Both the position numbers and the translations under genes were made by a program. A stretch of 64,000 nucleotides of DNA from a virus (taxonomy: Duplodnaviria > Heunggongvirae > Uroviricota > Caudoviricetes), in IMG/VR virus record IMGVR_UViG_3300028666_000024, positions 1 through 64,000 of that record; one strand, written 5' to 3'. This document shows positions 12,547-44,306 of the stretch, piece after piece. The notes below the pieces were generated by a model, which was not told the origin of the DNA, did no database searches, and was given only the letters and a program-made list of their open reading frames with translations. The first letter of the stretch is position 1, and each line of letters begins with the position of its first letter.

Positions 12547-13305
12547 TTATTTACTCCTCTTATCATTTTTGATTGTCAGTTTGGAGGTATTACAACTCCC
12601 GACATATCCACCAGATAATGTATTGATTGTCAGTTTGGAGGTCTCATAACTCCGGACATCTCCACTAGACACTGTATTGATTGTCAGTTTGGAGGTATCA
12701 AAACTCCGGACATCTCCACTAGACACTGTATTGATTGTCAGTTTGGAGGTATTATAACTCCCGACATCTCCACCAGACACTGTATCGATTGTCACTTTGG
12801 AGGTATCATAACTCCAGACATTTTCACCAGATAATGTATTGATTGTCAGTTTGGTGGTATCATAACTCAGGACATATCCACCAGATAATGTATTGATTGT
12901 CAGTTTGGATTTATTATAACTCCTGACATATCCAGCAGACACTGTATTGATTTTAACATTACCGGATAAAATAATCAAATTCAATTTGGTGAACTCAATT
13001 GGAATTTTTGTATCTTTTCGAATGATATGAGTTTTCGCCCATTCGTTCATTTTATCTCGACAAGCAATTTCTGCTTCTTTGATATTAAACCATTCCGGCA
13101 GAAAATCCTGATCTGTTTTAAATATCCAATTCTCTATAGGAGTTCGATAATCATTATCCTTTGGAGAAATTTCTATTCGAACAAAATCAGGTTTCTTTGT
13201 TTTGTCGTTCAATTTATTTTCCGATATGATATCCTCATGACTATCAGAATATTTGGAAAATAAAACATCATTCTGAGTTACGATGAAAGAGGCTGAGTTA
13301 CACAT
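12547..13305 (-). CDS. paralog family member 1: MCNSASF N-domain plus 7 x 18-aa repeats
   Basis: Conserved N-terminal ~125 aa, 18-aa repeats (KLTINTVSGGDVRSYDTS-like), C-terminal TIKNDKRSK; conserved AAAGGACATTAATTAAT-ATG upstream. Confidence 0.8.
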   Translation of the reverse strand: MCNSASFIVTQNDVLFSKYSDSHEDIISENKLNDKTKKPDFVRIEISPKDNDYRTPIENWIFKTDQDFLPEWFNIKEAEIACRDKMNEWAKTHIIRKDTKIPIEFTKLNLIILSGNVKINTVSAGYVRSYNKSKLTINTLSGGYVLSYDTTKLTINTLSGENVWSYDTSKVTIDTVSGGDVGSYNTSKLTINTVSSGDVRSFDTSKLTINTVSSGDVRSYETSKLTINTLSGGYVGSCNTSKLTIKNDKRSK

Positions 13306-13332
13306 ATTAATTAATGTCCTTTAGATATAAGT

Positions 13333-13479
13333 TTATATTTCAAAATCTTCAAAATTCATTTCTAAATCGTTCATTGCCTGTATCTTTGCTGCTTCTTCAC
13401 TAATAATAATTGAACCACATTCAGGACAGGTGAAATCAAATTCATTAACCAACACACCACAGAAAGGACATTCGTTCAT
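13333..13479 (-). CDS. zinc-ribbon peptide (48 aa; CPFCG...CPECG)
   Basis: AAGGAG RBS; two CPxCG motifs. Confidence 0.5.
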   Translation of the reverse strand: MNECPFCGVLVNEFDFTCPECGSIIISEEAAKIQAMNDLEMNFEDFEI

Positions 13480-13509
13480 GATACCTTCTCCTTTGTCTCA
13501 GGTTCGAAG

Positions 13510-14196
13510 TTAAGTTTCTAAATCCTTTTCAAAGTTGTCAAGATTTTCAAGCATACCCTGTAAATGTTCTGCTTTTGATTTTGCTTTTGCTATTGCAGGA
13601 TTATAATCAGGTAGAGATTTTTGAATTGCTTTACGTTTGTTAGGTTTAATTCTTTTTCCTTTCAATGCTCCAGTCATATCAGGTTTAATTTGACCATTGG
13701 AATATCTTGATTCCTCGACAACTAAAGATTCTTTCATTGTTCTGTCCTTCTCAAGTTTTTCCAATTGTTCAGAAGATTGTCTTTCTTCAAAAAATTTTTC
13801 AACTGGTTCAGAAGGTTTTGTTAAAATATTTGTAAGTTCTTGAGAAGTCATTCTGGTAGGTTTTGTTATCAATGGTTTTGACAAGGGAATTTCTTTTTCA
13901 ATTTCTTCTTTGAGTTCTTCTCTTGTCACATCAACTAACTCAACTTCGGGAAAATTTATAAGATTATTAATAGATTCAGAAACAATCTTTACATTTGTTT
14001 CAACAACCTTTGGAGGATTTTGTTGAAGTTTAAAATTATTAAAAATCTTTACCATGCTGCTTTTCTCTAATGCTTCTGCAAGTTCATCTGGCAACTCATA
14101 TACTTTACCATCTCTAGGTATAGCATATTTATTACCCCTCCATATTGTTCTTATTATAGTATTTACTTCCCACACATTCATCACAAACATAGACAT
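13510..14196 (-). CDS. hypothetical protein (228 aa)
   Basis: ORF. Confidence 0.55.
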   Translation of the reverse strand: MSMFVMNVWEVNTIIRTIWRGNKYAIPRDGKVYELPDELAEALEKSSMVKIFNNFKLQQNPPKVVETNVKIVSESINNLINFPEVELVDVTREELKEEIEKEIPLSKPLITKPTRMTSQELTNILTKPSEPVEKFFEERQSSEQLEKLEKDRTMKESLVVEESRYSNGQIKPDMTGALKGKRIKPNKRKAIQKSLPDYNPAIAKAKSKAEHLQGMLENLDNFEKDLET

Positions 14197-14561
14197 TATG
14201 CAACCTCCGGGACTTCAAATTCAGTTTTGGTTTCATCAATCTTATCAACCAAGACATCGTTCAGGGCTTCAACATAAAGTTCCTTATTACGAATACCAAC
14301 GAGTTCTTTAACCATAATACCTTTGTTAAATATTTGAATTGTAGGGAGAGCACATATATTCTGCTTCTCTGTTACTACACTATTCAAATCTATATCAATT
14401 TTTAAAAACTTTACTTTGTCTTTAAAACCTTCTTCAACATTTTCAAGTGTAGAAGTTGCAACACGACAGGGACCACACCATGAAGCGTAAAAATCAACAA
14501 CTACAGGAACTTCAGACTTTAAAACATTATTTTCAAAATTTACATCATTTGTTGAATTCAT
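14196..14561 (-). CDS. trx: thioredoxin
   Basis: WCGPC active-site motif (FYASWCGPCRV). Confidence 0.85.
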   Translation of the reverse strand: MNSTNDVNFENNVLKSEVPVVVDFYASWCGPCRVATSTLENVEEGFKDKVKFLKIDIDLNSVVTEKQNICALPTIQIFNKGIMVKELVGIRNKELYVEALNDVLVDKIDETKTEFEVPEVA

Positions 14562-14664
14562 TTACAAATCCTTTCATATAATATTTTCATTGATAAATTT
14601 TAAAGTTCTTTATAACTTCTGGTTCAAACATTTAAAATAATCCTTTTCAGATTATATTTATAGA

Positions 14665-14795
14665 AAGAGAAGGAAGGATTCGAACCCACGGACACCGCGC
14701 TGTATACACACGGAGTCAACTCTACAGGTTTTGATAGTATACATACCATAATACACCTGATAGTTTGCCTTAAACCTCTCGACCACATCTCTTTC
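14665..14795 (-). ncRNA. tRNA-like element (~128 nt) with an internal ~40-nt insertion
   Basis: Acceptor AGAGATG/CTTCTCT (6 of 7 bp), U8, 3-bp D-stem with GG loop, T-arm GTGGG-TTCGAAT-CCTTC contiguous with the acceptor; the core is ~40 nt too long for any standard tRNA. Confidence 0.4.
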
Positions 14796-14802
14796 CTTTT
14801 AA

Positions 14803-14922: not shown

Positions 14923-14950
14923 GTTGCTCTATCCTTTCTATGGTTACGTG

Positions 14951-15736
14951 TTAGAGTAAATTCTTTCCCTTGATAATTCCTGTATCATAACCATTTCCTA
15001 TAGATACATCGTTGATATTTATAGGTGAGAGTTTAATGAAAAAAAACTCAGGGTCGAAATACTTCTTTAACTTTACAATATCAAAATCCTTTTCGTCTGC
15101 AAGTGTAAGATTGACAGTGGTTTTCAGGTTACTATTGGTTCGAATCTGTCCCAATTCTTTAATCGACATCTTGTTTTGAATAGGAATCAGATTGTTTCTT
15201 CGCTCCTCATCCAGACTATGTAAACTAATCTGGAGAGATATATTACCCTTAATCCAAGAAAAATCAGAATCCTTGATACCAATTGTGGAAAGATAATGGT
15301 GGGTTCCGGGAAAAAGATTTTCAAGTTTCCAAATTGCAGTTCTTACTTCATCAATGTTTAGAAACGGTTCTCCCATCCTTGTATAATTAATCTTATGTTC
15401 CGCCGCCGATTCAAACGGTTGACTATACTTCTCCTGAATAAATAAAACTTGTTGAACTATTTCATCCCAATCAAGAGAAGCACAAGTATCAAGCTTGCCT
15501 GTTGCACATATTTTACAACCAACAGGACAACCAGACATACAAGATACACCAATCATCCAACGTTCGGATCTACTCCCACAGTTACCAGACTCAAGAGTGT
15601 TTTGTTTCCTACCCACTGCATCCTTTGTATAAAATGGTAGATAGGTATCCGTTGTTTCAATAGGCAAACCATCAATAGTTTCCAATTTATAAACTACACC
15701 ATTCCCGAAAGATTTACTATCTACCATTCGTAACAT
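14951..15736 (-). CDS. radical SAM enzyme, RlmN/Cfr-like (261 aa)
   Basis: GCPVGCKICATG (CxxxCxxC as in RlmN GCxxxCxFCxTG), MGEPFLN (GGE motif), ISLHSLDEERRNNLIP (like RlmN ISLHAxxDxxRxxLxP). Confidence 0.65.
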   Translation of the reverse strand: MLRMVDSKSFGNGVVYKLETIDGLPIETTDTYLPFYTKDAVGRKQNTLESGNCGSRSERWMIGVSCMSGCPVGCKICATGKLDTCASLDWDEIVQQVLFIQEKYSQPFESAAEHKINYTRMGEPFLNIDEVRTAIWKLENLFPGTHHYLSTIGIKDSDFSWIKGNISLQISLHSLDEERRNNLIPIQNKMSIKELGQIRTNSNLKTTVNLTLADEKDFDIVKLKKYFDPEFFFIKLSPININDVSIGNGYDTGIIKGKNLL

Positions 15737-15738
15737 AA

Positions 15739-16557
15739 TTATTTACTCCTCCTATCATTTTTGATTGTCAGTTTGGAGGTCTCATAACTCTGGACATATC
15801 CACCAGCACCAGACACTGTATCGATTGTTAGTTTGGAGGTATCACGACTCTGGACAACTCCACCAGATAATGTATCGATTGTCACATTGGAGGTCTCATA
15901 CCTCCTGACATATCCACCAGACACTGTATCGATTGTCACATTGGAGGTATCATAACTCCGGACATCTCCACTAGACACTGTATTGATTGTCAGTTTGGAG
16001 GTATTATAACTCCTAACATCTCTACCAGACACTGTATCGATTGTCACTTTGGAGGTATTATAACTCCAGAGATCTCCACCAGACACTGTATCGATTGTCA
16101 CTTTGGAGGTATCATAACTCCCGACATATCCACCAGATATTGTATTGATTATCAGTTTGGAGGTATTATAACTCCGGACATCTCCACCAGATAATGTATC
16201 AATTGTCACATTACCAGATAAAATAATCAAATTCAGTTTGGTTAACTCAATTGGAATTTTTGTATCTTTTCGAATGATATGAGTTTTCGCCCATTCGTTT
16301 ATTTTATCTCGACAAGCAATTTCTGCTTCTTTGTTGTTAAACCATTCCGGCAGAAAATCCTGATCTGTTTTAAATATCCAATTCTCCATAGGAGTTCGAT
16401 AATCATTATCCTTTGGAAAAATTTCTATTCGAACAAAATCCGGTTTCTTTGTTTTATCGTTTAATTTATTTTCCGATATGATATCTTCATGACTATCTGA
16501 ATATTTGGAAAAGAAAACATCATTTTGAGTTACGATGAACGAGGCTGAGTTACACAT
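15739..16557 (-). CDS. paralog family member 2 (8 repeats)
   Basis: Same architecture as member 1. Confidence 0.8.
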   Translation of the reverse strand: MCNSASFIVTQNDVFFSKYSDSHEDIISENKLNDKTKKPDFVRIEIFPKDNDYRTPMENWIFKTDQDFLPEWFNNKEAEIACRDKINEWAKTHIIRKDTKIPIELTKLNLIILSGNVTIDTLSGGDVRSYNTSKLIINTISGGYVGSYDTSKVTIDTVSGGDLWSYNTSKVTIDTVSGRDVRSYNTSKLTINTVSSGDVRSYDTSNVTIDTVSGGYVRRYETSNVTIDTLSGGVVQSRDTSKLTIDTVSGAGGYVQSYETSKLTIKNDRRSK

Positions 16558-16918: not shown

Positions 16919-18307
16919 TTACTTAGTTGAATTCTCCCGCACCTGATCAAAGGTCATATCCCTAATCAACTTTCCATTTTCAAATACAACTTCGAGAATG
17001 TCAACACCTTCAGAAGATTCAGAAACAGTTTTAAAACCTTCGGAAGTTTTGATAAGTTTCAGACGACCTCTTTTGCTTGCCTTCGTCTTATCCTTCGGGT
17101 CTTTGTAAATATCATACCAGATTCCATTACGACATTGAGCGGAAGACTTGAAAGCAAAACGCATAGTGTCCCTGTTGATCTTCTGAAGAAGTCCACCACC
17201 CATACCATAGGGATAAACACATTCGACAGACCATCCATTTACAACCAGAGCATCAAGAATCTCATTAATCTTTTCAATATCAAGACCATCACCCCAAAGA
17301 ATACCTATCTTCTGGTTAATGACTTTGAAACCTTTCTTGTTGACAAAACCTCCAAAGTTCTTGTAAACTGAATCGAGAATCTTCAGAATGCCAGTAACAG
17401 GGTCTCCACTATCAGGACGGATAACAAACCTACCGGGACGAGCAAGAATTTCATCTTTTAAAATTTTTCCATAATATTCATCAACACATCTGTCAATGTC
17501 ATAAGAATCACTTACAACACTAAGAATACCACTTGGAAATTTTTTAATAAGATTTTTGATTATTTCAAGTTCCCCTGCCGGACCAAATGCTGTCATAACA
17601 CTATGCTCGGCAGCAACAACAGAAAATGCAAGAGTGTTAAGATTTGCTTTATAATACTCCATTGCATAGTCTATTGCAGCTATTGTATCTGTCCCTTTAA
17701 AATTAACTAGGTGAGCCATACCACCCATACCGGCAGACTCAACAGAAGACACCCCCCTAAAACCAAAATCATGCAACATAAAATCCAACCCACCAAAATT
17801 ATCACCATCTTCACAAGTTACATTAAGATAACTCTTCAACATCTTTTTCACTTCAAAAGAGAGAGTTGATACTGTTGAAGAAAACCACACATGAGAAATC
17901 AAACTTTCTAGGTGGTTAGTCAACCACGCACATTTAGGATCTGTATTCTCAACTGTTAAGAGAACATTAGAAACAGGAACAACTAATCCTTCGGGAATAG
18001 CTTTAATTTTTATTGGTAATCTTCCACTATATTTTTCAAGAATATAATCCCATCGTTCCCGACAAAAAATACTACTATCTCCAAAATGAATTGCTGCTAT
18101 CTTTTCAGCAATATTAATTTTTTCTTTTGTAATAACAACACCTTCGAGATATTTCTTAATAATTGCTTGAAGACCAAAGAATAATACAGAGTCCCATTTT
18201 GATCCTTTTCTCGACTCAAAGTAACTATAAACATATTCAGTGTTTTTGGGATATTGAAGATGATGACTCCATTTATAAGAGTCAGATAAATTAATAATAT
18301 TTTCCAT
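16919..18307 (-). CDS. nadV: nicotinamide phosphoribosyltransferase (NAMPT/NadV)
   Basis: Family-typical length and motifs (FGFRGVSS, KGTDTIAAIDYAMEYY). Confidence 0.8.
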   Translation of the reverse strand: MENIINLSDSYKWSHHLQYPKNTEYVYSYFESRKGSKWDSVLFFGLQAIIKKYLEGVVITKEKINIAEKIAAIHFGDSSIFCRERWDYILEKYSGRLPIKIKAIPEGLVVPVSNVLLTVENTDPKCAWLTNHLESLISHVWFSSTVSTLSFEVKKMLKSYLNVTCEDGDNFGGLDFMLHDFGFRGVSSVESAGMGGMAHLVNFKGTDTIAAIDYAMEYYKANLNTLAFSVVAAEHSVMTAFGPAGELEIIKNLIKKFPSGILSVVSDSYDIDRCVDEYYGKILKDEILARPGRFVIRPDSGDPVTGILKILDSVYKNFGGFVNKKGFKVINQKIGILWGDGLDIEKINEILDALVVNGWSVECVYPYGMGGGLLQKINRDTMRFAFKSSAQCRNGIWYDIYKDPKDKTKASKRGRLKLIKTSEGFKTVSESSEGVDILEVVFENGKLIRDMTFDQVRENSTK

Positions 18308-18382
18308 AATTCACCTCTTTCTTAAAAGTTGTTTATATTATATAACTTTATTAACCACTTTTTCCAATCTTCAATTGACATT

Positions 18383-19456
18383 TCAAGTATACCTAAGAAA
18401 ATAATTCAAAATGTGAACGTGATCATCATGGAATTGTTCTTCATTGTTGTAAATATCATTGAACGGCATCCAGAAAGCTTCACTTGCATCATCAGCACCT
18501 TTAACATTAGGAAGAGGTCTGTCTCCGTCAAGTTCAATAAAATATGCATGAGTAATAGAACGACCAAGTACAGAACGGTTTGGATGATCAAAAACCTTAG
18601 AACTTCTTATCTTGCTTCGGAGATAGTCATGTTGCTCTACAATTTGAGTTTCTTCATAAAGTTCCCGAAGCATACTATCTTCAATGGTTTCTGTAATACC
18701 AAGATATCCTCCCGGCAGTGCAAGTTTTCCATTACCAATAACACCACCGCGCCTGACAACAAGAAGATGTCCAGCCTGAACCACGATAGCATCAGTTGTT
18801 ACAAGAGTAGGAGCGAAAGGAGCACTGGTCCACTTCGCTTTGTAATCTTTGATATATGCATACTCTTGACAAAGTTTAGAATATTCCGAAGTTTTAGAAA
18901 AATCTTCAAGAAATTTTAAAACAGGTTTTGAAACAAGTTTAGAATCTTCAATCTCTTTAATCTTAACACAACCAGTTGGAGAGAGTTCAAAATATAAATC
19001 CCTAACATCAGTTGCATTGACAATCTTACCATCAACCTTTACTGCTAATTGTTCATTAAGATAATATTGAGGAAACCATTTCAAATATCGGGAACTCTGA
19101 TCTTTAAAGTGACCGATAAGTACAACCTTTGAATTATTACCAGTAACTCTACGAATCTCATTCTGAAGAGAGGAGATCCAGCAATTATCATCATAAGGAC
19201 TATCTCTCAGGGGAACAGTGATTAGATCAAACAAATTTTTATCAATCTCCTTCAGTTGTTCATTCATTGCATTACGGAGCATCTGAACACGATCCACATA
19301 ACTCCAAGGGTTCTTGATTGTCTTGGATGCTTTATGAGAACCAAAAACAACTATAACCTTGTTAGCTAACTTGAAACCTTCCATGATAAGTTTCTCATGT
19401 GCAACAGTCAAAGGTTCTGCACGAAGGATGAATACTGTGTAGTCTGCCTTACTCAT
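18383..19456 (-). CDS. natV: bifunctional NMN adenylyltransferase / Nudix ADP-ribose pyrophosphatase (NadM/NatV-like)
   Basis: N-terminal cytidylyltransferase-like domain (VFILRAEPLTVAHEK) plus C-terminal Nudix box (GGYLGITETIEDSMLRELYEETQI). Confidence 0.75.
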   Translation of the reverse strand: MSKADYTVFILRAEPLTVAHEKLIMEGFKLANKVIVVFGSHKASKTIKNPWSYVDRVQMLRNAMNEQLKEIDKNLFDLITVPLRDSPYDDNCWISSLQNEIRRVTGNNSKVVLIGHFKDQSSRYLKWFPQYYLNEQLAVKVDGKIVNATDVRDLYFELSPTGCVKIKEIEDSKLVSKPVLKFLEDFSKTSEYSKLCQEYAYIKDYKAKWTSAPFAPTLVTTDAIVVQAGHLLVVRRGGVIGNGKLALPGGYLGITETIEDSMLRELYEETQIVEQHDYLRSKIRSSKVFDHPNRSVLGRSITHAYFIELDGDRPLPNVKGADDASEAFWMPFNDIYNNEEQFHDDHVHILNYFLRYT

Positions 19457-19517: not shown

Positions 19518-19787
19518 TTAAGGTTTTTCTATTATAACCCAATAACCAACAATAAATCTATTTTCCCCATTCTCTTTACCACACTCACAAACAGCCTTTA
19601 TTTTAAAGTCTGGATGTTGATAGAGCCAATGTGAAAGAGAAATTCCAAAATCATCTCTAAAACAATTTGAAAATAAATAAACTCCACAACCATAATCAAT
19701 AGGTTTTGTAAAGTCTGTTTCAGCAAAGATACTGGTAAACAACACAACAAGAATAATTAATACTTTATGTATTAGAGACATCGACAT
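19518..19787 (-). CDS. small secreted Cys-containing protein
   Basis: N-terminal signal-peptide-like hydrophobic segment. Confidence 0.4.
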   Translation of the reverse strand: MSMSLIHKVLIILVVLFTSIFAETDFTKPIDYGCGVYLFSNCFRDDFGISLSHWLYQHPDFKIKAVCECGKENGENRFIVGYWVIIEKP

Positions 19788-20940
19788 ACTCCTCATCGTT
19801 AAGTTTCAAAGCATTCATAATATACTTTTCAAGATACTTTCGACCTTTTTGAATCTCCATCATTTTAAAATAGTCTTGAAGCATTTTGATTTTTCCTTCA
19901 TAAATCAAAAACATCAAGGAAGGAAGAGTCCAGTCTTTTGCACCCGCAGCGAAAGATTTCTTATCCAAATCAAAATTTGCCGCAATACATTCATTTTGAA
20001 TCTTTGAGCAAAAATCCTTATACTTCCGTTCAATCAGACTTATCTTCTCACCAAACTCCGGGAAATACCCCTTAAACTCATCCTGCTCCCCGGAATGTAC
20101 TAAACCAACCAAAGCACGGAGAGAACGGCTTCCTGAGTCTTTGAGATGTGCTATCGAAACATACGTCGGATTCTTAATTTTAATCCGTCTGAAACTTAAT
20201 CCATCAACCTCATAGTGATTATAATCGACAGCAACATATCCCTCTTCAAGTTGCTGTAAAAGTTTAATTCTTTCAAATAGATTATTTTCAGAATTAATTT
20301 TAAAAGATTCAGGATATTTTACATCAAGAATAGACCGTGCAATATACCAAACAAAATTCTTACTACATTCAATATATGTTCCGGCATGACGCACAGTCAA
20401 TAGTGTTAATGATCTTTCTTTGTATGGTGTGATTACTTTATTATCAGGAGAAGTCAATTCAAAAACATATGTGAAATTTTTTGAAATAAACTTCCAAAAA
20501 TTTTTATACTGTTCAGAAGTTTTATAAAATAATTCTTTGAAAGTTAATTCTGAGAACGGCATCTTGGAATTATTTTCAATTACCTGTCTTGTTGCAAAGA
20601 ACCAACGATCCCGATACCAAAAAACATTAATCATACTTCCATCAATCTTCTGGAGAGCATAGGAGTTCTTATAATCAAAATCTTCTGTCTCTTGAAGAAC
20701 TTCTCCTTTGTTATAAAACCTTCGAAAAGGATATGCTATAACATTCCATGTATCAAGTTCAAGAACAATACCACGACATTCATTTACTATAGGATGATTC
20801 TTTGGTGACTCTGTTTGAGAATAATTCAAAATCACCAGAGGATAGATGGCATCTCTGTATGGATTTGCTTTGACTCCAAATTCAATTTCTAAATCTTTTA
20901 AAGTCTTACCTGAGCGAAGATATTCTTGAATTTTAAACAT
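19765..20940 (-). CDS. rnlA: RNA ligase 1 (T4 RnlA-like)
   Basis: NECRGIVLE (like T4 ALECRGIMFE) and motif I KIDGSM (like T4 KEDGSL); 391 aa. Confidence 0.8.
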   Translation of the reverse strand: MFKIQEYLRSGKTLKDLEIEFGVKANPYRDAIYPLVILNYSQTESPKNHPIVNECRGIVLELDTWNVIAYPFRRFYNKGEVLQETEDFDYKNSYALQKIDGSMINVFWYRDRWFFATRQVIENNSKMPFSELTFKELFYKTSEQYKNFWKFISKNFTYVFELTSPDNKVITPYKERSLTLLTVRHAGTYIECSKNFVWYIARSILDVKYPESFKINSENNLFERIKLLQQLEEGYVAVDYNHYEVDGLSFRRIKIKNPTYVSIAHLKDSGSRSLRALVGLVHSGEQDEFKGYFPEFGEKISLIERKYKDFCSKIQNECIAANFDLDKKSFAAGAKDWTLPSLMFLIYEGKIKMLQDYFKMMEIQKGRKYLEKYIMNALKLNDEEYVDVSNT

Positions 20941-21038: not shown

Positions 21039-21959
21039 TTACTCCAACCTATTGTCATTTTTGATTGTCAGTTTGGAGGTATCACGACTCTGGACATCTC
21101 CACCAGATAATGTATCGATTGTTAGTTTGGAGCTATGATAACTCCTGACAACTCCACCAAACACTGTATCGATTGTCAGTTTGGAGGTATCACAACTCTG
21201 GACATATCCACTAGATAATGTATTGATTGTCATTTTGGAGGTCTCAAAACTCCAGACATCTCCACCAGACAATATATCAATTGTTAGTTTGGAGGAATGA
21301 TAACTCAGGACATCTCCACCAGACAATATATCAATTGTCAGTTTGGAGGTATGATGACTCAGGACACATCCACTATATAATGTATTGATTGTCACATTGG
21401 AGGTATCAAAACTCCGGACATTTCCACCAGATAATGTATTAATTGTCAGTTTGGAGGTCTCATAACTCAGGACATCTCCACCAGACATTTTATCGATTGT
21501 CACATTGGAGGTATCATAACTCCGGACATATCCACCAGACACTGTATTGATTGTCAGTTTGGAGGTATCATAACTCCGGACATATCCACCAGATAATGTA
21601 TCAATTGTCACATTACCAGATAAAATAATCAAATTCAATTTGGTGAACTCAGCCGGAATTTTTGTATCTTTTCGAATGATATGAGTTTTCGCCCATTCGT
21701 TCATTTTATCTTGACAGGCGATTTCTGCTTCTTTGATATTAAACCATTCCGGCAGAAAATTCTGATCTGTTTTAAATATCCAATTCTCCATAGGAGTTCG
21801 ATAATCAGTATCCTTTGGAGAAATTTCTATTCGAACAAAATCAGGTGTATCTGTTTTGTCATTCAATTTATTTTCCGATATGATATCTTCATGACTATCT
21901 GAATATTTGGAAAACAAAACATCATTTTGAGTTACGATGAAAGAGGCAGAGTTACACAT
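21039..21959 (-). CDS. paralog family member 3 (11 repeats)
   Basis: Same architecture; C-terminus is NDNRLE. Confidence 0.8.
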   Translation of the reverse strand: MCNSASFIVTQNDVLFSKYSDSHEDIISENKLNDKTDTPDFVRIEISPKDTDYRTPMENWIFKTDQNFLPEWFNIKEAEIACQDKMNEWAKTHIIRKDTKIPAEFTKLNLIILSGNVTIDTLSGGYVRSYDTSKLTINTVSGGYVRSYDTSNVTIDKMSGGDVLSYETSKLTINTLSGGNVRSFDTSNVTINTLYSGCVLSHHTSKLTIDILSGGDVLSYHSSKLTIDILSGGDVWSFETSKMTINTLSSGYVQSCDTSKLTIDTVFGGVVRSYHSSKLTIDTLSGGDVQSRDTSKLTIKNDNRLE

Positions 21960-22061: not shown

Positions 22062-23723
22062 TTACTCTTCCTTCTTAGACAGACCACTGAATTGACTTGA
22101 CTTCTTGATGGGTTTCGTTATCGCCGACGCAGTTTTGAAAGCATCTGCATTGTAAACATAAACCCCACCATTGTTTGCCGAAAGATACTTCCCGCTTGCT
22201 GACTGCCGAAGAGCTGTAATCTTTTCAGCATAGGTCTTACTGATCGGAACGATATAGTTTTCACCGGCATCCTTCGGCGTGAATGGGTCTATCTCACTAT
22301 CCAATCGGTTGGCGATGTCACATGCATTTCTTATTTCTGCACCTGTCCAACCTTCATCATCAGGACGAACATCCTTGACGTTTGGATATTTCTTCAACCA
22401 TATCTCCCATATCTTTGCCCGCTCTGCTGCATTGGGAAGGTCAAAGAACCACTGCCCGAAAGTAAACCGGCGCTGGAGTTCGGGAGGAATTGCAGCAGCA
22501 CTATTACAGGAAGCAATCCAGAAGGTATTTTTTCCGGCCAAAGCCTTGATGATTGACAGGGCACGTTTAGTTCTCTCCCCGGTTTCACCGACCAAACTTC
22601 CCTTGAGAGCAGACAGGTCAAGAGTAATCGTTGGAACACCACCATAGGCACCGAGAGCAACCGAAGAAAGAGATTTTCCAGAACCAGCAGGACCGATTGC
22701 AATAGTCCCGGAACACTGCTCCTCTTCCATAAAGGTAAGCATTGCACCGAGTATCTCTTGTGAAGTACCACTGGTATCACCAACACCACCGTTTGCATAA
22801 CCGGCACCGGCGATTGACTTCTCGATTTCTTCAATCCGGATAACGGCATTGGGAGGATTTTTTCCAGTCATGATGCGCCGAGCAAATTCCTTGAAAGGAT
22901 CAAGTCCTCCGATATCTTCGGGTCTCATTCCGGACATATCGACCGTCAGACCTGCAACGCTGTTGATGGTTTGAGTCCAACGCTTGCGGAGAATCTCAGG
23001 TTCAAAACCCTTATCAGGACTGATTGACAGAGACACACTCTGTTCCGTTGCATAGGCAGACAGACCGCGAGTTGACTGAAGGGATGTCTTCGTTGCATCT
23101 GCATCAATCGTAACACCAATCTTTTCCAATTCCGCGCGAGCATCGTTCAGCGTACTGTTAATTATCTTTTCCCTTGCTTCATCATTGGGAACACCATCAT
23201 CGATTTGAAAAAGATCTTGTGAAAGAGATGGAGGAATCGTTGTTCCCTGTGCTGTGAGAAGGATAAGCAGTTTTCCACTCTGTTTGAAAATATCGCGAAG
23301 GTTTGCTATTGCCTGTTCAACCGCGACTTCCTTGAGTATACGCTGTGCTCCAAGAATACAAACAACGATTTTTGCAGGGTCGAAAGAACCCTCATCACTC
23401 TCAACCATGGTCCATTTCTTTTCGTCAAGCAGGACGTTCAGTGCATCAACCGGCTGGAGCAACATTGCCGGGATAGGAATCATTGGAGGATTGGGATCAA
23501 AGGAACCGGGATCTTTAAAGAGGATTAATTTTTCCACAACGGGTTTGCCTGATTCATTAACCGACTGATAACCCCTCACCATATCCCATGCAATGATCGG
23601 GGTTTTTGCCGACAAATTTTCGGCTATGTCCTTCAGACTGGCAAAATCATCTGAAGTATTAACTATTGCCAGCGGAACACCAACCAACCTTGCCCGTTTA
23701 ATCTCATCAATAAGGATACTCAT
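22062..23723 (-). CDS. AAA-type ATPase (553 aa), GC-rich, with atypical Walker B
   Basis: Walker A GPAGSGKS; SRH-like CNSAAAIPPELQRRF; no canonical hhhhDE motif; local GC clearly above the genome background. Confidence 0.6.
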   Translation of the reverse strand: MSILIDEIKRARLVGVPLAIVNTSDDFASLKDIAENLSAKTPIIAWDMVRGYQSVNESGKPVVEKLILFKDPGSFDPNPPMIPIPAMLLQPVDALNVLLDEKKWTMVESDEGSFDPAKIVVCILGAQRILKEVAVEQAIANLRDIFKQSGKLLILLTAQGTTIPPSLSQDLFQIDDGVPNDEAREKIINSTLNDARAELEKIGVTIDADATKTSLQSTRGLSAYATEQSVSLSISPDKGFEPEILRKRWTQTINSVAGLTVDMSGMRPEDIGGLDPFKEFARRIMTGKNPPNAVIRIEEIEKSIAGAGYANGGVGDTSGTSQEILGAMLTFMEEEQCSGTIAIGPAGSGKSLSSVALGAYGGVPTITLDLSALKGSLVGETGERTKRALSIIKALAGKNTFWIASCNSAAAIPPELQRRFTFGQWFFDLPNAAERAKIWEIWLKKYPNVKDVRPDDEGWTGAEIRNACDIANRLDSEIDPFTPKDAGENYIVPISKTYAEKITALRQSASGKYLSANNGGVYVYNADAFKTASAITKPIKKSSQFSGLSKKEE

Positions 23724-24362: not shown

Positions 24363-25511
24363 TTAAATTTTATCTTCTGATTTTGAATCTTCTGCATCTT
24401 GTTTTAAAAGATACTCAGGGTTTACTGCCTTAAAACTAATGCTTTGATCATAAGTTCTCCACACAATGCCTTCTCTTTGGCGCTTTAACAACTTACTATC
24501 TCCAACACTCCATTTGATAATATCATCAACAGTGTCAGGAATTTGAACCTCAGTACCAAGCACAGGAACCATTTTTAAATTAAGTTGGAAGCAAATATTT
24601 CTCAACTGATCTAAGGAGTATCGTTCCCCGGTCTTGATGTTAATAATATTAAAGATGTAAAAATCCAATTGAGAAAGTTTATAAATATTTTTTTGAATTC
24701 CCGGCCCGATAACCTCTCCCTGAATTGCTAACTGAATTTTTGTCTTCTTGTAATAATCTTTCAAAATCTGTTTTAAATTATAAATCTTTGCAACCTGCGA
24801 CCAGTTAGAATTATCCCTTTCAGATTTTCTAACGTTATGAGAACAGATTCCAAATTCACTTACAAACCAGCCGAGTTTTTTAAACCACCAAGTACCGGAC
24901 TGTCCTTCTAACTTCTCAGTGAGATAATATAACTTTGACTTATCTTTGACAAGGAAAGGAAGATTCTGAATTCTCTCCTCATCTGTGCGTTTGATAAATC
25001 CCGGCCATCCTTTTGTGTTTCTGTTGCAATAATTTCTATACCATTTAAAACGTTTCAAATACTTATAGTGCCATGCTCTCTTTTTAGGAGTTGTTGTATT
25101 ACTCTCCCTATCAGATTGAGATTCATACTTTACAATTCCCATAAGTTCTGTGAGATCATCACCCTCTTTGTAAGACTTTGGAATTTTATTTCCAATCTGT
25201 TTTAAACAGTTTTCAACATTGGGAAGGGAAATAAGAAGTCCCTCACTGATTTGCTTCTTCAGTTTTATAATCTTAACACGATACTTACGAGACAACATAA
25301 AGGCAAAGTATTCAATTTTTGGAACAATGCTATCTGTTTCAATATAGAGAGCAAGATCACCAACTTTAAATTCATCCTTATTCACCACGCAGTGCCATCC
25401 CAACACTGTAACAACTTCAATTTTATCTGCACCGGGAATTGTATCAAGAGAAATAATCTTCTCAACATGTGCTAATACTCTTCCAGACTTCTCGATTATT
25501 TCTTCGCTCAT
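24363..25511 (-). CDS. RNA ligase, DraRnl/Rnl5-like, with N-terminal tRNA-binding-type OB fold
   Basis: N-terminal GADKIEVVTVLGWHCVVNKDEFKVGDLALYIE (Myf/Trbp111-like OB pattern); motif I TEKLEGQSG, motif IV EGIVWR, motif V FKAVN..LLK. Confidence 0.55.
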   Translation of the reverse strand: MSEEIIEKSGRVLAHVEKIISLDTIPGADKIEVVTVLGWHCVVNKDEFKVGDLALYIETDSIVPKIEYFAFMLSRKYRVKIIKLKKQISEGLLISLPNVENCLKQIGNKIPKSYKEGDDLTELMGIVKYESQSDRESNTTTPKKRAWHYKYLKRFKWYRNYCNRNTKGWPGFIKRTDEERIQNLPFLVKDKSKLYYLTEKLEGQSGTWWFKKLGWFVSEFGICSHNVRKSERDNSNWSQVAKIYNLKQILKDYYKKTKIQLAIQGEVIGPGIQKNIYKLSQLDFYIFNIINIKTGERYSLDQLRNICFQLNLKMVPVLGTEVQIPDTVDDIIKWSVGDSKLLKRQREGIVWRTYDQSISFKAVNPEYLLKQDAEDSKSEDKI

Positions 25512-35519: not shown

Positions 35520-35598
35520 TGGCAGTGCCGATGGGATTTCAACCCACGATAACCACAGTGACAGTGTGGTGCATTAAAGCAGACTATGCTACGGCACT
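35520..35598 (-). tRNA. tRNA-Asp (GTC), CCA encoded
   Basis: Hand-folded: acceptor AGTGCCG/CGGCACT, anticodon stem CCACA/TGTGG, loop CTGTCAC, T-arm GTGGG-TTGAAAT-CCCAT. Confidence 0.7.
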
Positions 35599-35612
35599 AA
35601 ATTTAAAATTGG

Positions 35613-35686
35613 CTGGCAAGGCAGGGATCGAACCTGCGACAACCAAATTAACAGTTTGGTGTTCATACCAACTGAACTACTTGCCA
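35613..35686 (-). tRNA. tRNA-Asn (GTT)
   Basis: Acceptor TGGCAAG/CTTGCCA, D GTTC/GAAC, anticodon loop CTGTTAA, T-arm GCAGG-TTCGATC-CCTGC. Confidence 0.7.
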
Positions 35687-35689
35687 ATA

Positions 35690-35764
35690 TCTAACTGACA
35701 GGATTTGAACCTGTGTTGACTTGCTCCCAAAGCAAGTGCCTCAACCAAACTAGGCTACAGTTAG
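35690..35764 (-). tRNA. tRNA-Pro (TGG)
   Basis: Acceptor CTAACTG/CAGTTAG, D GCCT/AGGC, anticodon loop TTTGGGA, T-arm ACAGG-TTCAAAT-CCTGT. Confidence 0.7.
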
Positions 35765-35770
35765 TTTATA

Positions 35771-35844
35771 TAGCGGGAGTCAGATTCGAACTGACGATAG
35801 GGAGCTTATGAGGCTCCTGTCTTAGACCACTAGACAACCCCGCA
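35771..35844 (-). tRNA. tRNA-Met or Ile2 (CAT) with a 1:72 mismatch
   Basis: Anticodon loop CTCATAA, D GTCT/AGAC, T-arm GTCAG-TTCGAAT-CTGAC; position 1 T and 72 T are unpaired. Confidence 0.6.
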
Positions 35845-35857
35845 GTCAATATCAAAA

Positions 35858-35934
35858 TGGAGCAGCAAGTGGGATTTCAACCCACGTAATTTCGCTTGGA
35901 AGGCGAACACATGAAGCATCTATGTTATTGCTGC
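35858..35934 (-). tRNA. tRNA-Gly (TCC), CCA encoded
   Basis: Acceptor GCAGCAA/TTGCTGC, anticodon loop CTTCCAA, T-arm GTGGG-TTGAAAT-CCCAC. Confidence 0.65.
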
Positions 35935-37869: not shown

Positions 37870-37952
37870 GGCCGGATGGTGGAAAGGTAGACACAAGGGA
37901 CTTAAAATCCCTCGGAAGCAATTCTGTGAGAGTTCAAATCTCTCTTCGGCCA
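37870..37952 (+). tRNA. tRNA-Leu (TAA), type II
   Basis: Acceptor GGCCGGA/TTCGGCC, D GTG/CAC with GG loop, anticodon stem AGGGA/TCCCT, loop CTTAAAA, long variable arm, T-arm GAGAG-TTCAAAT-CTCTC. Confidence 0.7.
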
Positions 37953-38083
37953 CTTTCAAACTTCTTTCAAAGAAAACTTTAAAATGCCTGAAATTCTTTT
38001 AAAAATAAATTGTAAAGAACAAACATGCAGTCTGTGTGATTGGTTTGATTATACTTGTTTAAAATCACAAAAGGAGATTTCAA

Positions 38084-39164: not shown

Positions 39165-40340
39165 ATGATTGTTAAATATGAACAAGGTTTACAAAGAATT
39201 CCTATTAAAAGATGGTTGGAAGATGTTGAAGATTCTGCATGGCAACAAGCTTTAAATCTTTCAAACCTTCCCTTTACCTTCAGTCACATTGCCCTCATGC
39301 CCGACTGTCACAGCGGATATGGAATGCCTATTGGTGGAGTTATGGCAACCAAAGGAGTTATTGTTCCTAATGCTGTAGGTGTAGATGTTGGTTGTGGTAT
39401 GTGTGCTGTCAAGACTCCTTGGAAAATAGAAGAGATTGACAAAGTAGTTCTCAAAAAGATTATGGGCATCATTAGAAAAGTTATCCCTGTTGGTTTTAAT
39501 AAACATAAAGAACCACAAAACAAAAAATATATGCCTGACCCCTTCTGTTCTCTTGTTGTAGAAAAAGAATATGATAACGCTCTATGTAGTCTCGGAACGC
39601 TCGGTGGGGGCAATCACTTCCTAGAAATTCAGAAAGATACTGAAGGTTTTGTTTGGATAATGATTCACTCAGGTAGTCGTAATCTCGGAAAGAAAGTTGC
39701 TGAATATTATAACAAACTTGCTATAATTCTCAATGAAAAATATCATTCTAGTGTTCCTACAAACTTTCAACTTGCTTTCCTTCCAATGGATACTAATATT
39801 GGAATGGACTACGAGATGGATATGAATTTTTGTGTTGAGTTTGCATTGAAGAATCGTATGCTCATGATAGAAAGAATAGCAGAAACCTTTGACAAAGTTA
39901 TGAGTTCAAATAAAATTGATTTGTCTCAGGTGATTAACATTGCACACAACTATGCCCGGATGGAACACCACTTCGGGGAAAATGTTATGGTTCATCGAAA
40001 AGGAGCAACATCTGCCCGTAAGGATGAAATTGGAATCATTCCCGGTTCTCAAGGTTCTAAATCTTACATTGTAAAAGGTTTAGGAAATGTTCAAAGTTTT
40101 ACAAGTTGTTCTCATGGTGCCGGAAGAAAAATGTCAAGAAAATCCGCTTCCGAAAATCTTAACCTCGAAGAAGAAATTAAAAAACTTGATGACCAAGGAA
40201 TCATTCATAGTATCAGACATAAAAATGATCTTGATGAAGCAGATGGAGCATATAAAGATATCAAAACCGTTATGGAAAATCAATCTGACCTTGTTGAAAT
40301 TGTAACAGAACTATCACCATTAGCAGTTGTGAAAGGATAA
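39165..40340 (+). CDS. rtcB: RtcB RNA ligase (3'-phosphate/5'-hydroxyl)
   Basis: Metal-site His/Cys pattern; C-terminal SCSHGAGR (GMP-His site); 391 aa. Confidence 0.85.
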   Translation: MIVKYEQGLQRIPIKRWLEDVEDSAWQQALNLSNLPFTFSHIALMPDCHSGYGMPIGGVMATKGVIVPNAVGVDVGCGMCAVKTPWKIEEIDKVVLKKIMGIIRKVIPVGFNKHKEPQNKKYMPDPFCSLVVEKEYDNALCSLGTLGGGNHFLEIQKDTEGFVWIMIHSGSRNLGKKVAEYYNKLAIILNEKYHSSVPTNFQLAFLPMDTNIGMDYEMDMNFCVEFALKNRMLMIERIAETFDKVMSSNKIDLSQVINIAHNYARMEHHFGENVMVHRKGATSARKDEIGIIPGSQGSKSYIVKGLGNVQSFTSCSHGAGRKMSRKSASENLNLEEEIKKLDDQGIIHSIRHKNDLDEADGAYKDIKTVMENQSDLVEIVTELSPLAVVKG

Positions 40341-40344
40341 CTCA

Positions 40345-41109
40345 ATGTGTAAATCTGCCTCTTTCATCGTAACTCAGAATGATGTTTTATTTTCCAAATA
40401 TTCTGATAGTCATGAGGATATCATATCGGAAAATAAATTGAATGACGAAACAAATACACCTGATTTTGTTCGAATAGAAATTTTTCCAAAGGATAATGAT
40501 TATCGAACTCCTATGGAGAATTGGATATTTAAAACAGATCAGGATTTTCTGCCGGAATGGTTTAATATCAAAGAAGCAGAAATCGCCTGTCGAGATAAAA
40601 TAAACGAATGGGCGAAAACTCATATCATTCGAAAAGATACAAGAATTCCGACTGAGTTCACCAAACTAAATTTGATTATTTTATCCGGTAATGTGAAAAT
40701 CGATACAGTGTCTGGTGGAGATGTCTGGAGTTATAATAAATCCAAACTGACAATCAATACATTATCTGGTGGATATGTCCTGAGTTATGATACCTCCAAT
40801 GTGACAATCGATACAGTGTCTGGTGGAGATGTTAGGAGTTGTGATACCTCCAAACTGACAATCAATACAGTGTCTAGTGGAGATGTCCGGAGTTATGATA
40901 CCTCCAAACTGACAATCAATACATTATCTAGTGGAGTTGTCCAGAGTCGTGATACCTCCAAACTAACAATCAATACAGTGTCTGGTGCTGGTGGATATGT
41001 CTGGAGTTATAATACCTCCAAACTAACAATCGATACATTATCTGGTGGATATGTTATGAGTCGTGATACCTCCAAACTAACAATCAAAAATGATAAGAGG
41101 AGTAAATAA
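40345..41109 (+). CDS. paralog family member 4 (7 repeats; starts MCKSASF)
   Basis: Conserved AAAGGATAACTCA-ATG upstream. Confidence 0.8.
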   Translation: MCKSASFIVTQNDVLFSKYSDSHEDIISENKLNDETNTPDFVRIEIFPKDNDYRTPMENWIFKTDQDFLPEWFNIKEAEIACRDKINEWAKTHIIRKDTRIPTEFTKLNLIILSGNVKIDTVSGGDVWSYNKSKLTINTLSGGYVLSYDTSNVTIDTVSGGDVRSCDTSKLTINTVSSGDVRSYDTSKLTINTLSSGVVQSRDTSKLTINTVSGAGGYVWSYNTSKLTIDTLSGGYVMSRDTSKLTIKNDKRSK

Positions 41110-41466: not shown

Positions 41467-41502
41467 TTGAATGTAGGAAGAATTTGAAACAATTATCAAA
41501 GG

Positions 41503-41733: not shown

Positions 41734-41745
41734 TCAGGAGAAGTT

Positions 41746-42285: not shown

Positions 42286-42292
42286 GGTTATT

Positions 42293-42604
42293 ATGGAAAA
42301 TGTAAAACCCAAAAGTGACAAAATTCCAAGAGTGAGTATGAAAGATTTCTTGGAAAAGTTTGAACCGGAAATCAGACCTGCTATTCTTGATGTACGGAAA
42401 AGGGATGGTGTTGCTGGTGTCGCTGGATTGAAATGTGAAGTTATGAATTCATCACGTTTTGGACTACTCACGGCCCTGATATATGGTCCGGGTTGCACAT
42501 TCAAAACTCTGGAAGAAATGACTGAGCGCAATGGAGGTGTTTACATTACTGGTCTTCCGAGTTCAGCAAGTTTTGTTTATTTCTATACGGAAGATAAGGA
42601 GTAA
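42293..42604 (+). CDS. hypothetical protein (~104 aa)
   Basis: GAGG RBS before the internal ATG. Confidence 0.45.
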   Translation: MENVKPKSDKIPRVSMKDFLEKFEPEIRPAILDVRKRDGVAGVAGLKCEVMNSSRFGLLTALIYGPGCTFKTLEEMTERNGGVYITGLPSSASFVYFYTEDKE

Positions 42605-42605
42605 T

Positions 42606-42672
42606 ATTCATAACGGCCCCTATGTCCGGAGTTGTGATACCTCCAAACTGACAATCAAAAATGATAAAAGGA
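42606..42672 (+). pseudogene. orphan 3' fragment of a family gene (last repeat plus KNDKR codons) fused upstream of member 5
   Basis: tatgtccggagttgtgatacctccaaactgacaatcaaaaatgataaaagg matches the family C-terminal coding sequence. Confidence 0.6.
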
Positions 42673-42679
42673 TAACTCA

Positions 42680-43501
42680 ATGTGTAACTCAGCCTCGTTC
42701 ATCGTAACTCAAAATGATGTTTTCTTTTCCAAATATTCCGATAGTCATGAAGATATCATATCGGAAAATAAATTGAATGACAAAACAGATACACCTGATT
42801 TTGTTCGAATAGAAATCTCTCCAAAGGATAATGATTATCGAACTCCTATAGAGAGTTGGATATTTAAAACAGATCAGGATTTTCTGCCGGAATGGTTTAA
42901 TATCCAAGAAGCAGAAATCGCCTGTCGAGATAAAATAAACGAATGGGCGAAAACTCATATCATTCGAAAAGATACAAAAATTCCGGCTGAGTTCACCAAA
43001 TTGAATTTGATTATTTTATCCGGTAATGTGACAATCGATACATTATCTGATGGATGTGTCCAGAGTTATGAGACCACCAAACTGACAATCAATACATTAT
43101 CTGGTGGAGATGTCCGGAGTTATGATACCACCAAACTGACAATCAATACAGTGTCTAGTGGAGATGTCCGGAGTTATAATACCTCCAAAGTGACAATCAA
43201 TACAGTGTCTAGTGGATATGTCCGGAGTTATGATACCTCCAAAGTGACAATCAATACATTATCTGGTGGAGATGTCCGGAGTCATCATACCTCCAATGTG
43301 ACAATCGATAAAATGTCTGGTGGAGATGTCTGGAGTTATAATAAATCCAAAGTGACAATCGATAAAATGTCTGGTGGAGATGTCTGGAGTTATAATAAAT
43401 CCAAAGTGACAATCGATACAGTGTTTGGTGGAGATGTCCAGAGTCGTGATACCTCCAAACTGACAATCAAAAATGATAAAAGGATAACTCAAAATGTGTA
43501 A
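42680..43501 (+). CDS. paralog family member 5 (8 repeats); C-terminus reads through into the next copy's RBS region
   Basis: Ends KNDKRITQNV, overlapping the start of member 6. Confidence 0.8.
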   Translation: MCNSASFIVTQNDVFFSKYSDSHEDIISENKLNDKTDTPDFVRIEISPKDNDYRTPIESWIFKTDQDFLPEWFNIQEAEIACRDKINEWAKTHIIRKDTKIPAEFTKLNLIILSGNVTIDTLSDGCVQSYETTKLTINTLSGGDVRSYDTTKLTINTVSSGDVRSYNTSKVTINTVSSGYVRSYDTSKVTINTLSGGDVRSHHTSNVTIDKMSGGDVWSYNKSKVTIDKMSGGDVWSYNKSKVTIDTVFGGDVQSRDTSKLTIKNDKRITQNV

Positions 43502-44306
43502 CTCAGCCTCTTTCATCGTAACTCAAAATGATGTTTTGTTTTCCAAATATTCAGATAGTCATGAAGATATCATATCGGAAAATAAATTGAATGACAAAAC
43601 AAAGAAACCGGATTTTGTTCGAATAGAAATTTCTCCAAAGGATAATGATTATCGAACTCCTATGGAGAATTGGATATTTAAAACAGATCAGGATTTTCTG
43701 CCGGAATGGTTTAATATCCAAGAAGCAGAAATCGCCTGTCGAGATAAAATAAACGAATGGGCGAAAACTCATATCATTCGAAAAGATACAAGAATTCCGA
43801 CTGAGTTCACCAAACTAAATTTGATTATTTTATCCGGTAATGTGACAATCGATACAGTGTCTGCTGGATATGTCCGGAGTTATAATACCTCCAAAATAAC
43901 AATCAATACATTATCTGGTGGATATGTCCTGAGTTATGATACCTCCAATGTGACAATCGATACAGTGTCTGGTGGAGATGTTAGGAGTTGTGATACCTCC
44001 AATGTGACAATCGATACAGTGTCTGGTGGAGATGTTAGGAGTTGTGATACCTCCAAACTGACAATCAATACAGTGTCTGGTGGAGATGTTAGGAGTTGTG
44101 ATACCTCCAAACTGACAATCGATAAAATGTCTGGTGGATATGTCTGGAGTTTTGATACCTCCAAAGTGACAATCGATACAGTGTCTGGTGGATATGTCCG
44201 GAGTTATCATACATCCAATGTGACAATCGATACAGTGTCTGGTGGAGATGTTTGGAGTTTAAATACCTCCAAACTGACAATCAAAAATGATAAGAGGAGT
44301 AAATAA
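43494..44306 (+). CDS. paralog family member 6 (8 repeats)
   Basis: Tandem with member 5. Confidence 0.8.
   Translation: MCNSASFIVTQNDVLFSKYSDSHEDIISENKLNDKTKKPDFVRIEISPKDNDYRTPMENWIFKTDQDFLPEWFNIQEAEIACRDKINEWAKTHIIRKDTRIPTEFTKLNLIILSGNVTIDTVSAGYVRSYNTSKITINTLSGGYVLSYDTSNVTIDTVSGGDVRSCDTSNVTIDTVSGGDVRSCDTSKLTINTVSGGDVRSCDTSKLTIDKMSGGYVWSFDTSKVTIDTVSGGYVRSYHTSNVTIDTVSGGDVWSLNTSKLTIKNDKRSK

Follow-up and report, generated by a model that had tools for sequence, protein, structure and literature searches.

The stretch of DNA analysed here, referred to as the window, spans 64,000 nucleotides (positions 1 to 64,000 of the IMG/VR virus record IMGVR_UViG_3300028666_000024) and contains six full-length copies of a paralogous phage gene. 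Each copy codes for a conserved N-terminal domain that begins with Met-Cys, followed by tandem 18-residue repeats that vary at a few fixed positions. An earlier note on this DNA had described six such genes, and the listing of open reading frames (ORFs) recovers all six, each ATG-initiated, at exactly the positions given there (Table 1). A blastn search of the window with one copy and its flanks as query returns exactly these six copies, which are 88–90% identical in nucleotides over 740–810 nt, and one 3'-end relic of a seventh.

Table 1. Positions of the repeat genes, their neighbours and other features in the window; the last row gives intervals in two other IMG/VR loci
Feature	Position	Strand	Description
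Copy 1	12547-13305	-	252 aa; N-domain 12958-13305; seven 18-aa units 12580-12957; tail LTIKNDKRSK and stop 12547-12579
Radical S-adenosylmethionine (SAM) gene	14951-15736	-	261 aa; CxxxCxxC; TIGR00048 (RlmN/Cfr) E 4e-20, well below the cutoff; begins 2 nt past copy 2
Copy 2	15739-16557	-	272 aa; N-domain 16210-16557; eight units (one of 20 aa) 15772-16209; tail 15739-15771
NAMPT and bifunctional NMNAT/Nudix	16919-19456	-	NF006629 566 bits; NMNAT/Nudix E 6e-97; flanked by copies 2 and 3
RNA ligase, Rnl1-like	19765-20940	-
Copy 3	21039-21959	-	306 aa, longest of the six; N-domain 21612-21959; ten units 21072-21611; tail LTIKNDNRLE 21039-21071
AAA ATPase	22062-23723	-	553 aa; phrog_8638 E 2e-38; weakly like the anti-phage ATPase IetA/IteA (E 7e-5, 2e-5); directly upstream of copy 3
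RNA ligase, DRB0094-type with OB fold	24363-25511	-
Six tRNA genes (Asp, Asn, Pro, Met, Gly, Leu)	35520-35934; 37870-37953	-; +
RtcB	39165-40340	+
Copy 4	40345-41109	+	254 aa; Lys3 instead of Asn3; N-domain 40345-40692; seven units (one of 20 aa) 40693-41076; tail 41077-41109
Relic of a seventh copy	42621-42671	+	last ~50 nt of a repeat array (...RSCDTSKLTIKNDKR); blastn 92–97% identity to unit ends
Copy 5	42680-43501	+	273 aa; N-domain 42680-43027; eight units (two identical) 43028-43459; tail LTIKNDKRITQNV 43460-43501
Copy 6	43494-44306	+	270 aa; N-domain 43494-43841; eight units 43842-44273; tail 44274-44306; forms a tandem pair with copy 5
560-aa protein	44631-46313	-	long acidic and lysine-rich low-complexity stretches (EEDKEKEEK...); no Pfam match; immediately downstream of the tandem pair; opposite strand
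Antisense ORFs	13027-13263; 16279-16464; 21681-21902	+	opposite the N-domains of copies 1–3
Antisense ORFs	40387-40623; 42689-42958; 43551-43772	-	opposite the N-domains of copies 4–6
LRR-type arrays compared (IMG/VR)	L012 9021-20270; L013 1-6517		L013 is without ~4.1 kb within the array

Architecture and variation of the six copies

The first 116 residues are conserved among the six copies at 91–94% protein and 93–97% DNA identity (MAFFT alignment). The near-identical domain of ~125 residues described in the earlier note therefore holds for these 116, and its remainder takes in the first, degenerate coil of the repeat region. In every pairwise comparison the N-domain is under purifying selection (dS ~0.15, dN ~0.03, dN/dS 0.10–0.47 with a mean of ~0.2), which means that all six copies are maintained as functional genes. 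A structural model of the domain of copy 3 (mdc291d1dd15e) has a predicted local distance difference test (pLDDT) score of 93.6, and the head is best described as a constant, uncharacterised alpha/beta domain of ~100 residues.

Behind the head, the copies carry 7, 8, 10, 7, 8 and 8 units (copies 1–6), 48 in all, where 7–11 per copy and ~49 in total had been estimated. All but two of the units are 18 residues long, the two others having 20 through a GA insertion, and each array closes with a truncated unit, LTIKND.... Copies 1, 4 and 6 close exactly with TIKNDKRSK, the others with KNDRRSK, KNDNRLE or KNDKRITQNV. The repeat isoelectric point (pI) ranges from 5.7 to 9.4, and the solenoid is not basic overall.

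An AlphaFold2 model of copy 1 (m3da6b08cfcb4), made with a 6-sequence alignment, has pLDDT values of at least 84, mostly above 90, from about residue 120 on. In the unit register V1 T2 I3 D4 T5 V6 S7 G8 G9 D10 V11 R12 S13 Y14 D15 T16 S17 K18, each model coil consists of two strands, at positions 18–6 and 10–14, joined by turns at S7-G8-G9 and D15-T16-S17 (DSSP). This second module is thus predicted to be a right-handed beta-solenoid formed by a single chain, with two strands in each 18-residue coil; the earlier note had expected a beta-helix with a coil of this length. Apart from the high confidence of the model, the repeats match known beta-helix structures and, weakly, the DUF2807/GIN hidden Markov model (HMM).

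Per-position entropy peaks at positions 10, 12, 14 and 15 (1.67–2.09 bits; positions 11, 13, 15 and 16 in the numbering of the earlier note), so that variation is indeed clustered at a few fixed positions of the unit. It is lowest (at most 0.3 bits) at I3, G9, V11 and S13. The T-I-N-T-V-S-G-G scaffold, formerly taken as invariant, is near-invariant rather than strictly so: positions 1, 4, 6, 8 and 18 are mostly two-state, reflecting VTIDTV and LTINTL unit subtypes. Positions 10, 12 and 14 probably point outward as one ladder, forming a single face, because they alternate with the core residues V11 and S13 on one strand of the model. Position 15 would be a variable turn residue beside this three-residue ladder, and T2 with D/N4 on the opposite strand would form a conserved face.

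Variable positions carry 4–7 alleles each, 46 of the 48 unit sequences are distinct, and 29 different four-residue combinations occur at the variable positions among 46 units; each paralog therefore shows its own ladder. The units are nearly alike at synonymous sites (synonymous diversity, piS, ~0.10), and nonsynonymous diversity (piN) at the four variable codons is 0.315. The ratio of piN at positions 10, 12, 14 and 15 to piS over all positions is 3.0 (bootstrap 95% range 2.4–3.9) and that at nine scaffold positions is 0.55 (0.35–0.85), values that are indicative rather than a formal test because units exchange by duplication or conversion and hence are non-independent.

Marks of duplication surround the copies. 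The common ribosome binding site context attributed to them earlier consists of an AAAGGA motif 7–13 nt upstream of the ATG in all six, but it comes in two flavours according to strand, with AAAGGACATTAAT[TC]AAT preceding the ATG of the minus-strand copies and AAAGGATAACTCA(AA) that of the plus-strand copies. The unit of duplication is the ORF plus 13–19 nt of upstream sequence. Instances of AAAGGATAACTCA lie at 40328-40347, 42656-42682 and 43470-43496. In front of copy 4, which begins 4 nt past the RtcB stop codon, the sequence comprises the last three RtcB codons and the spacer; before copies 5 and 6 it stands in place of the usual ...AAAAGGAGTAAATAA end of the preceding copy. Because it recurs there, the plus-strand duplications seem to have carried the RtcB 3' end along, and the joints seem to lie at AAAGGA microhomology. 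Copies 5 and 6 overlap by 8 nt (ATGTGTAA), the stop codon of copy 5 falling within codons 2–3 of copy 6. The relic, which the earlier note overlooked, leads into the AAAGGATAACTCA spacer before copy 5.

Two further observations concern the strands and flanks of the copies. Each N-domain faces an open antisense ORF of 61–89 residues (MSFRPFV...), and long ones extend across the repeats; they would most simply be by-products of the conserved sense sequence. Scans for sigma-70 promoters and terminators around the copies gave the same counts as in shuffled sequence and were uninformative.

The wider family and its copy-number change

A HMMER search with the N-domain profile alone against 1.84 billion cluster representatives (50% identity clusters) reveals a large unannotated family: 2,197 representatives match at E<=1e-3, 1,414 of them reach E<=1e-10, and in nearly all the alignment starts at residue 1. 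A word-indexed search found three relatives only. Family proteins are named only 'hypothetical protein' in their sources; two relatives have a faint precomputed match to PF27509 (DUF8349), which could not be evaluated, and literature searches returned no description of the family or of DUF8349. In INPHARED, megablast with 10 kb of the window gave no match, and tblastn with the protein or the N-domain reached three metagenome-derived phage records and no cultured phage with a detectable copy.

The head is conserved in a manner reminiscent of an active site. The cysteine after Met1, noted earlier as invariant in the window, is conserved across the whole family: 231 of 261 sampled members begin exactly with Met-Cys, and the others are mostly upstream-extended gene calls with an in-frame Met-Cys, or truncated. 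In this sample M1 is present in 248/248, C2 in 247/248, S6 in 250/254, R43 in 240/261, P48 in 252/261 and D65 in 256/261 members, while H23, E45, P70 and W72 are each found in 261/261. Methionine aminopeptidases can remove the initiator Met when Cys follows; the mature head is therefore predicted to begin with a free cysteine, a 1,2-aminothiol. As judged from conservation, Cys2 with the invariant His23 and Glu45 and the near-invariant Ser6, Arg43 and Asp65 points to a thiol-based catalytic, covalent or ligand-binding site. Neither Pfam, NCBIfam nor PADLOC has a single N-domain match across 150 relatives, even at E<=10; PHROG gives weak, unannotated matches that all fall within the repeats, and the sole match in a PDB-sequence profile search is spurious (E 1.6). 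Together with fold comparison, these searches connect the N-domain to no well-characterised family.

The same head is fused to very unlike tandem repeats elsewhere in the family, including 9-residue GSSQVGEMW/R units, 8-residue NSTVxAxG and GGTVEYIx units, and repeats of 13, 16–17, ~21 (leucine-rich repeat (LRR)-like) and 4 residues or of MORN-like type. The dominant periods are 9 and its multiples, a theme that the 18-residue coil of the window fits as 9+9. Toggles at fixed positions (R/W/G, D/Y/N/G, E/V) on otherwise identical codons recur among these repeats, for example in locus L017. In addition, a phage with a related RtcB codes for a protein (L036, 2474-3322, plus strand) in which 9-residue solenoid repeats, GNAQIGTVS/YE, stand between different N- and C-terminal domains; the 9-residue solenoid module therefore also serves other heads.

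Comparison of related phages provides direct evidence of copy-number change in an LRR-type sister subfamily, a polymorphism for which the earlier note had proposed looking. Loci L012 and L013 belong to phages that are 99.2–99.4% identical across the flanks, yet they carry five and two copies, respectively. One of the five L012 copies is frameshifted and one truncated, and the second copy of L013 is a chimera of the 5' part of the second and the 3' part of the last L012 copy. Recombination between paralogs in this subfamily therefore changes copy number and makes new arrays. The duplicated identical units in copies 5 and 6 of the window, and its relic, point the same way. Copy 2 is identical to P0004 and to the independent ENA contig L001, an assembly that is 100% identical to the window over 4,819 nt including this copy, and so there is no sign of rapid hypermutation. 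A family gene is cut by the contig end in seven of 26 IMG/VR loci (L002, L005, L009, L010, L015, L021 and L027), far above expectation for a gene of ~800 nt, which indicates that assemblies break in these repeats, possibly through strain-level heterogeneity.

Genomic context and possible function

The window is a 33% GC piece of a ~169-kb phage contig. The phage is a large, very distant T4-like myovirus, and its gp6-like baseplate wedge protein is 22–27% identical to those of cultured T4-like phages. As the earlier note had it, the copies lie among early, RNA-repair and anti-defence genes: they are interleaved with genes for thioredoxin, an RlmN/Cfr-like radical-SAM protein (an unusual, short phage-encoded enzyme of this type), NAMPT, NMNAT/Nudix, two RNA ligases, an AAA ATPase and RtcB, and with the tRNA cluster. 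NAMPT with NMNAT/Nudix makes up a NARP2-type NAD+ reconstitution pair, reported to be a phage counter-defence (bioRxiv 10.1101/2024.02.11.579819). The ligases, RtcB and six tRNA genes suggest an RNA-repair set that serves in defence against host anticodon nucleases.

Similar surroundings are seen in other phages, and among uncultured ones the family recurs widely in early regions. Among the 26 IMG/VR loci the sole recurrent neighbours are ParB-methyltransferase, DEAD/ResIII helicase and primase-DnaB genes; all-vs-all clustering of neighbours yields these generic replication genes and neither a dedicated partner nor a recurring structural gene. In two prophages the gene directly follows a cI/Cro-type switch and heads an early operon with Gam, RusA, helicase, and primase or Rep-O, and at other loci it stands beside DnaB, a DnaC-like gene or an SNF2-methyltransferase gene. 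A search for close relatives by way of RtcB and NAMPT reached only phages in which these proteins are 38–66% identical to those of the window; they have no family member within 10 kb of these genes, and the family is therefore accessory in this lineage.

The reading favoured here, with a probability of roughly 0.4 and thus tentative, is that the six functional paralogs form a repertoire of specificities in which the solenoid face binds varied targets and the head provides a common function. The product would be an early intracellular protein of two modules, a constant head and a variable solenoid. Its variable face would bind a range of targets inside the cell, among which rapidly changing host proteins, for instance those of defence, are the most plausible, and the head would bring the same activity or docking function to each of them. 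Ordinary point substitutions under diversifying selection, together with changes in unit number and recombination among the paralogs, could supply new specificities, and a dedicated mutator would not be needed. The earlier note had suggested a diversification or decoy/binder system; no active diversification machinery was found in the window, and the proteins may be decoys or binders. It is rather doubtful, but conceivable, that the Met-Cys head represents a new type of enzyme with an N-terminal cysteine, or a covalent trap, which the evolvable solenoid guides to different host proteins; a thioester, an aldehyde or a peptide bond might then be the reaction partner of the free 1,2-aminothiol, set with the invariant His23 and Glu45. 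In that case phages would hold a modular effector repertoire, shuffled by recombination, against variable host immunity, and the proteins would be a hitherto unrecognised class of counter-defence factors in thousands of uncultured phages.

Several points weigh against a repertoire of binders. The exposure of the variable positions is deduced from strand alternation, and piN/piS among units is a non-standard test. One family copy is all that most phages show in the ±10 kb examined; a repertoire is thus not typical of phages with the family. Copy 1 lies ~400 nt from a head-tail-adaptor-like gene. The proteins match no PADLOC or anti-defence family, and homology searches lend no support to any binding partner or enzymatic activity.

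The variation may also be passive. If the proteins were structural or scaffold elements (filament, spacer or cytoskeletal) with no specific target, the variable positions would be merely unconstrained surface and the arrays would be homogenised by unequal crossing-over. The near-identity of units at synonymous sites does indicate concerted evolution, unit number ranges from 7 to 10, some of the variation is two-state and correlated (VTIDTV and LTINTL) as expected from shuffling of unit types, and beta-solenoids such as bactofilin and FapA can be structural, with FapA matches occurring in relatives. Neutral sites should not, however, exceed synonymous diversity, as the four variable positions do; the same fixed-position hypervariability recurs in unrelated repeat types on the same head, and multiple intact paralogs are kept with the head under purifying selection. 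A purely structural role is accordingly judged unlikely. We give still less weight to a virion-associated adhesin or fibre, in which the N-domain would anchor to the particle and the variable beta-helix would bind surface glycans or receptors, as in phages with multiple tailspikes. The gene lies in early or replication modules across phages, without a recurrent structural neighbour, and in the window it shares its orientation with RtcB, the radical-SAM gene, NAMPT and RNA ligase and is closely packed with them. The proteins are predicted to be small single-chain solenoids with neither a trimerisation domain nor a known anchor domain, PHROG tail-family matches are only weak (phrog_23130, E 0.016 and 0.033), and an invariant N-terminal Cys/His/Glu set is unexpected in a docking domain.

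The remaining explanations concern how such genes spread or vary. Copies scattered precisely between unrelated genes as units of ribosome binding site plus ORF, a relic, and the absence of the family from equivalent sites examined in phages with related RtcB or NAMPT would all suit a selfish cassette resembling a homing endonuclease, with a nuclease N-domain and the repeats as a modular DNA-recognition array, spread in the manner of T4 seg/mob genes; near-identical repeats with few hypervariable residues also recall the codes of transcription activator-like effectors (TALEs). This account is improbable: the constant domain contains no GIY-YIG, HNH, LAGLIDADG or PD-(D/E)XK motif and no Pfam, PHROG or NCBIfam match, Foldseek matches to GIY-YIG proteins in BFVD are noise (E>3, TM<0.2), the pI range of the repeats is not that of a basic solenoid, most phages have one copy at a fixed early-operon position, and the junctions of the duplications have the look of microhomology joining in which the RtcB 3' end was taken along. 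Very little credence is given to a precursor of ribosomally synthesised and post-translationally modified peptides (RiPPs), with a conserved leader and a hypervariable multi-core peptide modified by a neighbouring enzyme. Paralogs with a conserved N-terminus and hypervariable C-terminus do recall prochlorosin-type precursors, the radical-SAM gene directly follows copy 2, and there are spurious-level NCBIfam matches to repeat RiPPs, but that enzyme is RlmN/Cfr-like, no maturase gene adjoins the other five copies or the genes of the relatives, no conserved protease or transporter gene was found alongside, and the C-terminal part is confidently predicted to be a folded solenoid. Least credible is a target of dedicated hypermutation such as a diversity-generating retroelement (DGR), to which the phage context and hypervariability at fixed NNT/NNG-type codons might point. 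In the window, 64 kb of the ~169-kb contig, no reverse transcriptase (RT)-like ORF or template repeat is found, only the six copies and the relic matching one another; the variation is not confined to adenines, with G, T, C and A mixed at first and second codon positions; the independent assembly is identical across copy 2; and no RT neighbour is shared among the 26 related loci. The probability left over falls to something else.

If the favoured reading is right, a very large phage protein family, with no fewer than 2,000 clusters at 50% identity, has gone unannotated. It would combine a new small domain with an enzyme-like invariant Cys/His/Glu signature and a naturally 'engineerable' solenoid binder, a scaffold that could interest protein engineering, and would show that phage binder repertoires can be built by plain selection and recombination without a DGR. 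With six natural specificity variants in one region, close to known counter-defence genes, the window would make target discovery directly testable.

Comparison with known systems

Resemblance of the head to known N-terminal-cysteine enzymes is limited to single residues. It shares Cys2 with a conserved His and Glu with N-terminal nucleophile (Ntn) hydrolases and class II amidotransferases and with SRAP proteins (YedK/HMCES). The likeness to Ntn enzymes raised in the earlier note fails at the level of fold, since the four-layer alpha-beta-beta-alpha arrangement is not found; neither a fold nor an HMM match carrying a Cys2/Glu/His triad was obtained for SRAP (PF02586). A pentapeptide-repeat DNA mimic (Qnr/MfpA) was likewise rejected: the period is 18 (9+9), not five, Pfam gives no pentapeptide match, and the repeat pI is as broad as stated above.

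The closest structural relatives of the repeat part are bacterial. PF10988 (DUF2807/GIN), with a gathering cutoff of 24.2 bits, scores 28.8 bits on copy 1, 26.7 on copy 5 and 14.7–23.1 on the other four, and comparison of the model with structures shows the repeats to have a single-chain right-handed beta-helix fold like that of 3jx8, 3ljy and 3pet. The repeat part is a borderline case for the DUF2807/GIN beta-helix class; even if not a member, it is structurally related. The Bacteroidales structures 3jx8, 3ljy, 3lyc and 3pet, deposited as putative lipoprotein, adhesin or pectinase, are presumably PF10988 chains. Known DUF2807 proteins are secreted or lipoprotein bacterial proteins; the Met-Cys head, the nearly identical units in tandem and the hypervariability at fixed positions that mark the phage family are absent from them. 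Ice-binding and nucleation proteins with two-sheet beta-solenoids, such as MpAFP region IV (3p4g) and InaZ (16-residue repeats), resemble the family in fold and geometry only; the phage proteins would be intracellular, their ladder is diversified rather than uniform (no TxT/TxN arrays), and they have no Ca2+ motif.

Similarity of another kind extends to systems that diversify a binding surface. Like the variable proteins of DGRs (Mtd of Bordetella phage), the family is phage-encoded and concentrates massive variation at a few codons of a surface that in Mtd binds ligand; unlike them, it shows no RT or template repeat in the window and no adenine pattern, varies in a repeat array rather than a C-type-lectin fold, and lies outside the tail module. 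The LRRs of lamprey variable lymphocyte receptors, the repeat-variable residues of TALE repeats and the ankyrin-PRANC proteins of poxviruses are closer in logic, in that near-identical units differ at few surface positions, a constant effector or adaptor domain is joined to a variable array, and multicopy paralogs are reshuffled by recombination. The phage family differs from these in its beta-solenoid fold, head domain and phage setting, and the analogy is one of logic, not homology. It is best placed as a viral family of putative hypervariable repeat binders, and could be categorically new if the uncharacterised head proves to be an enzyme.

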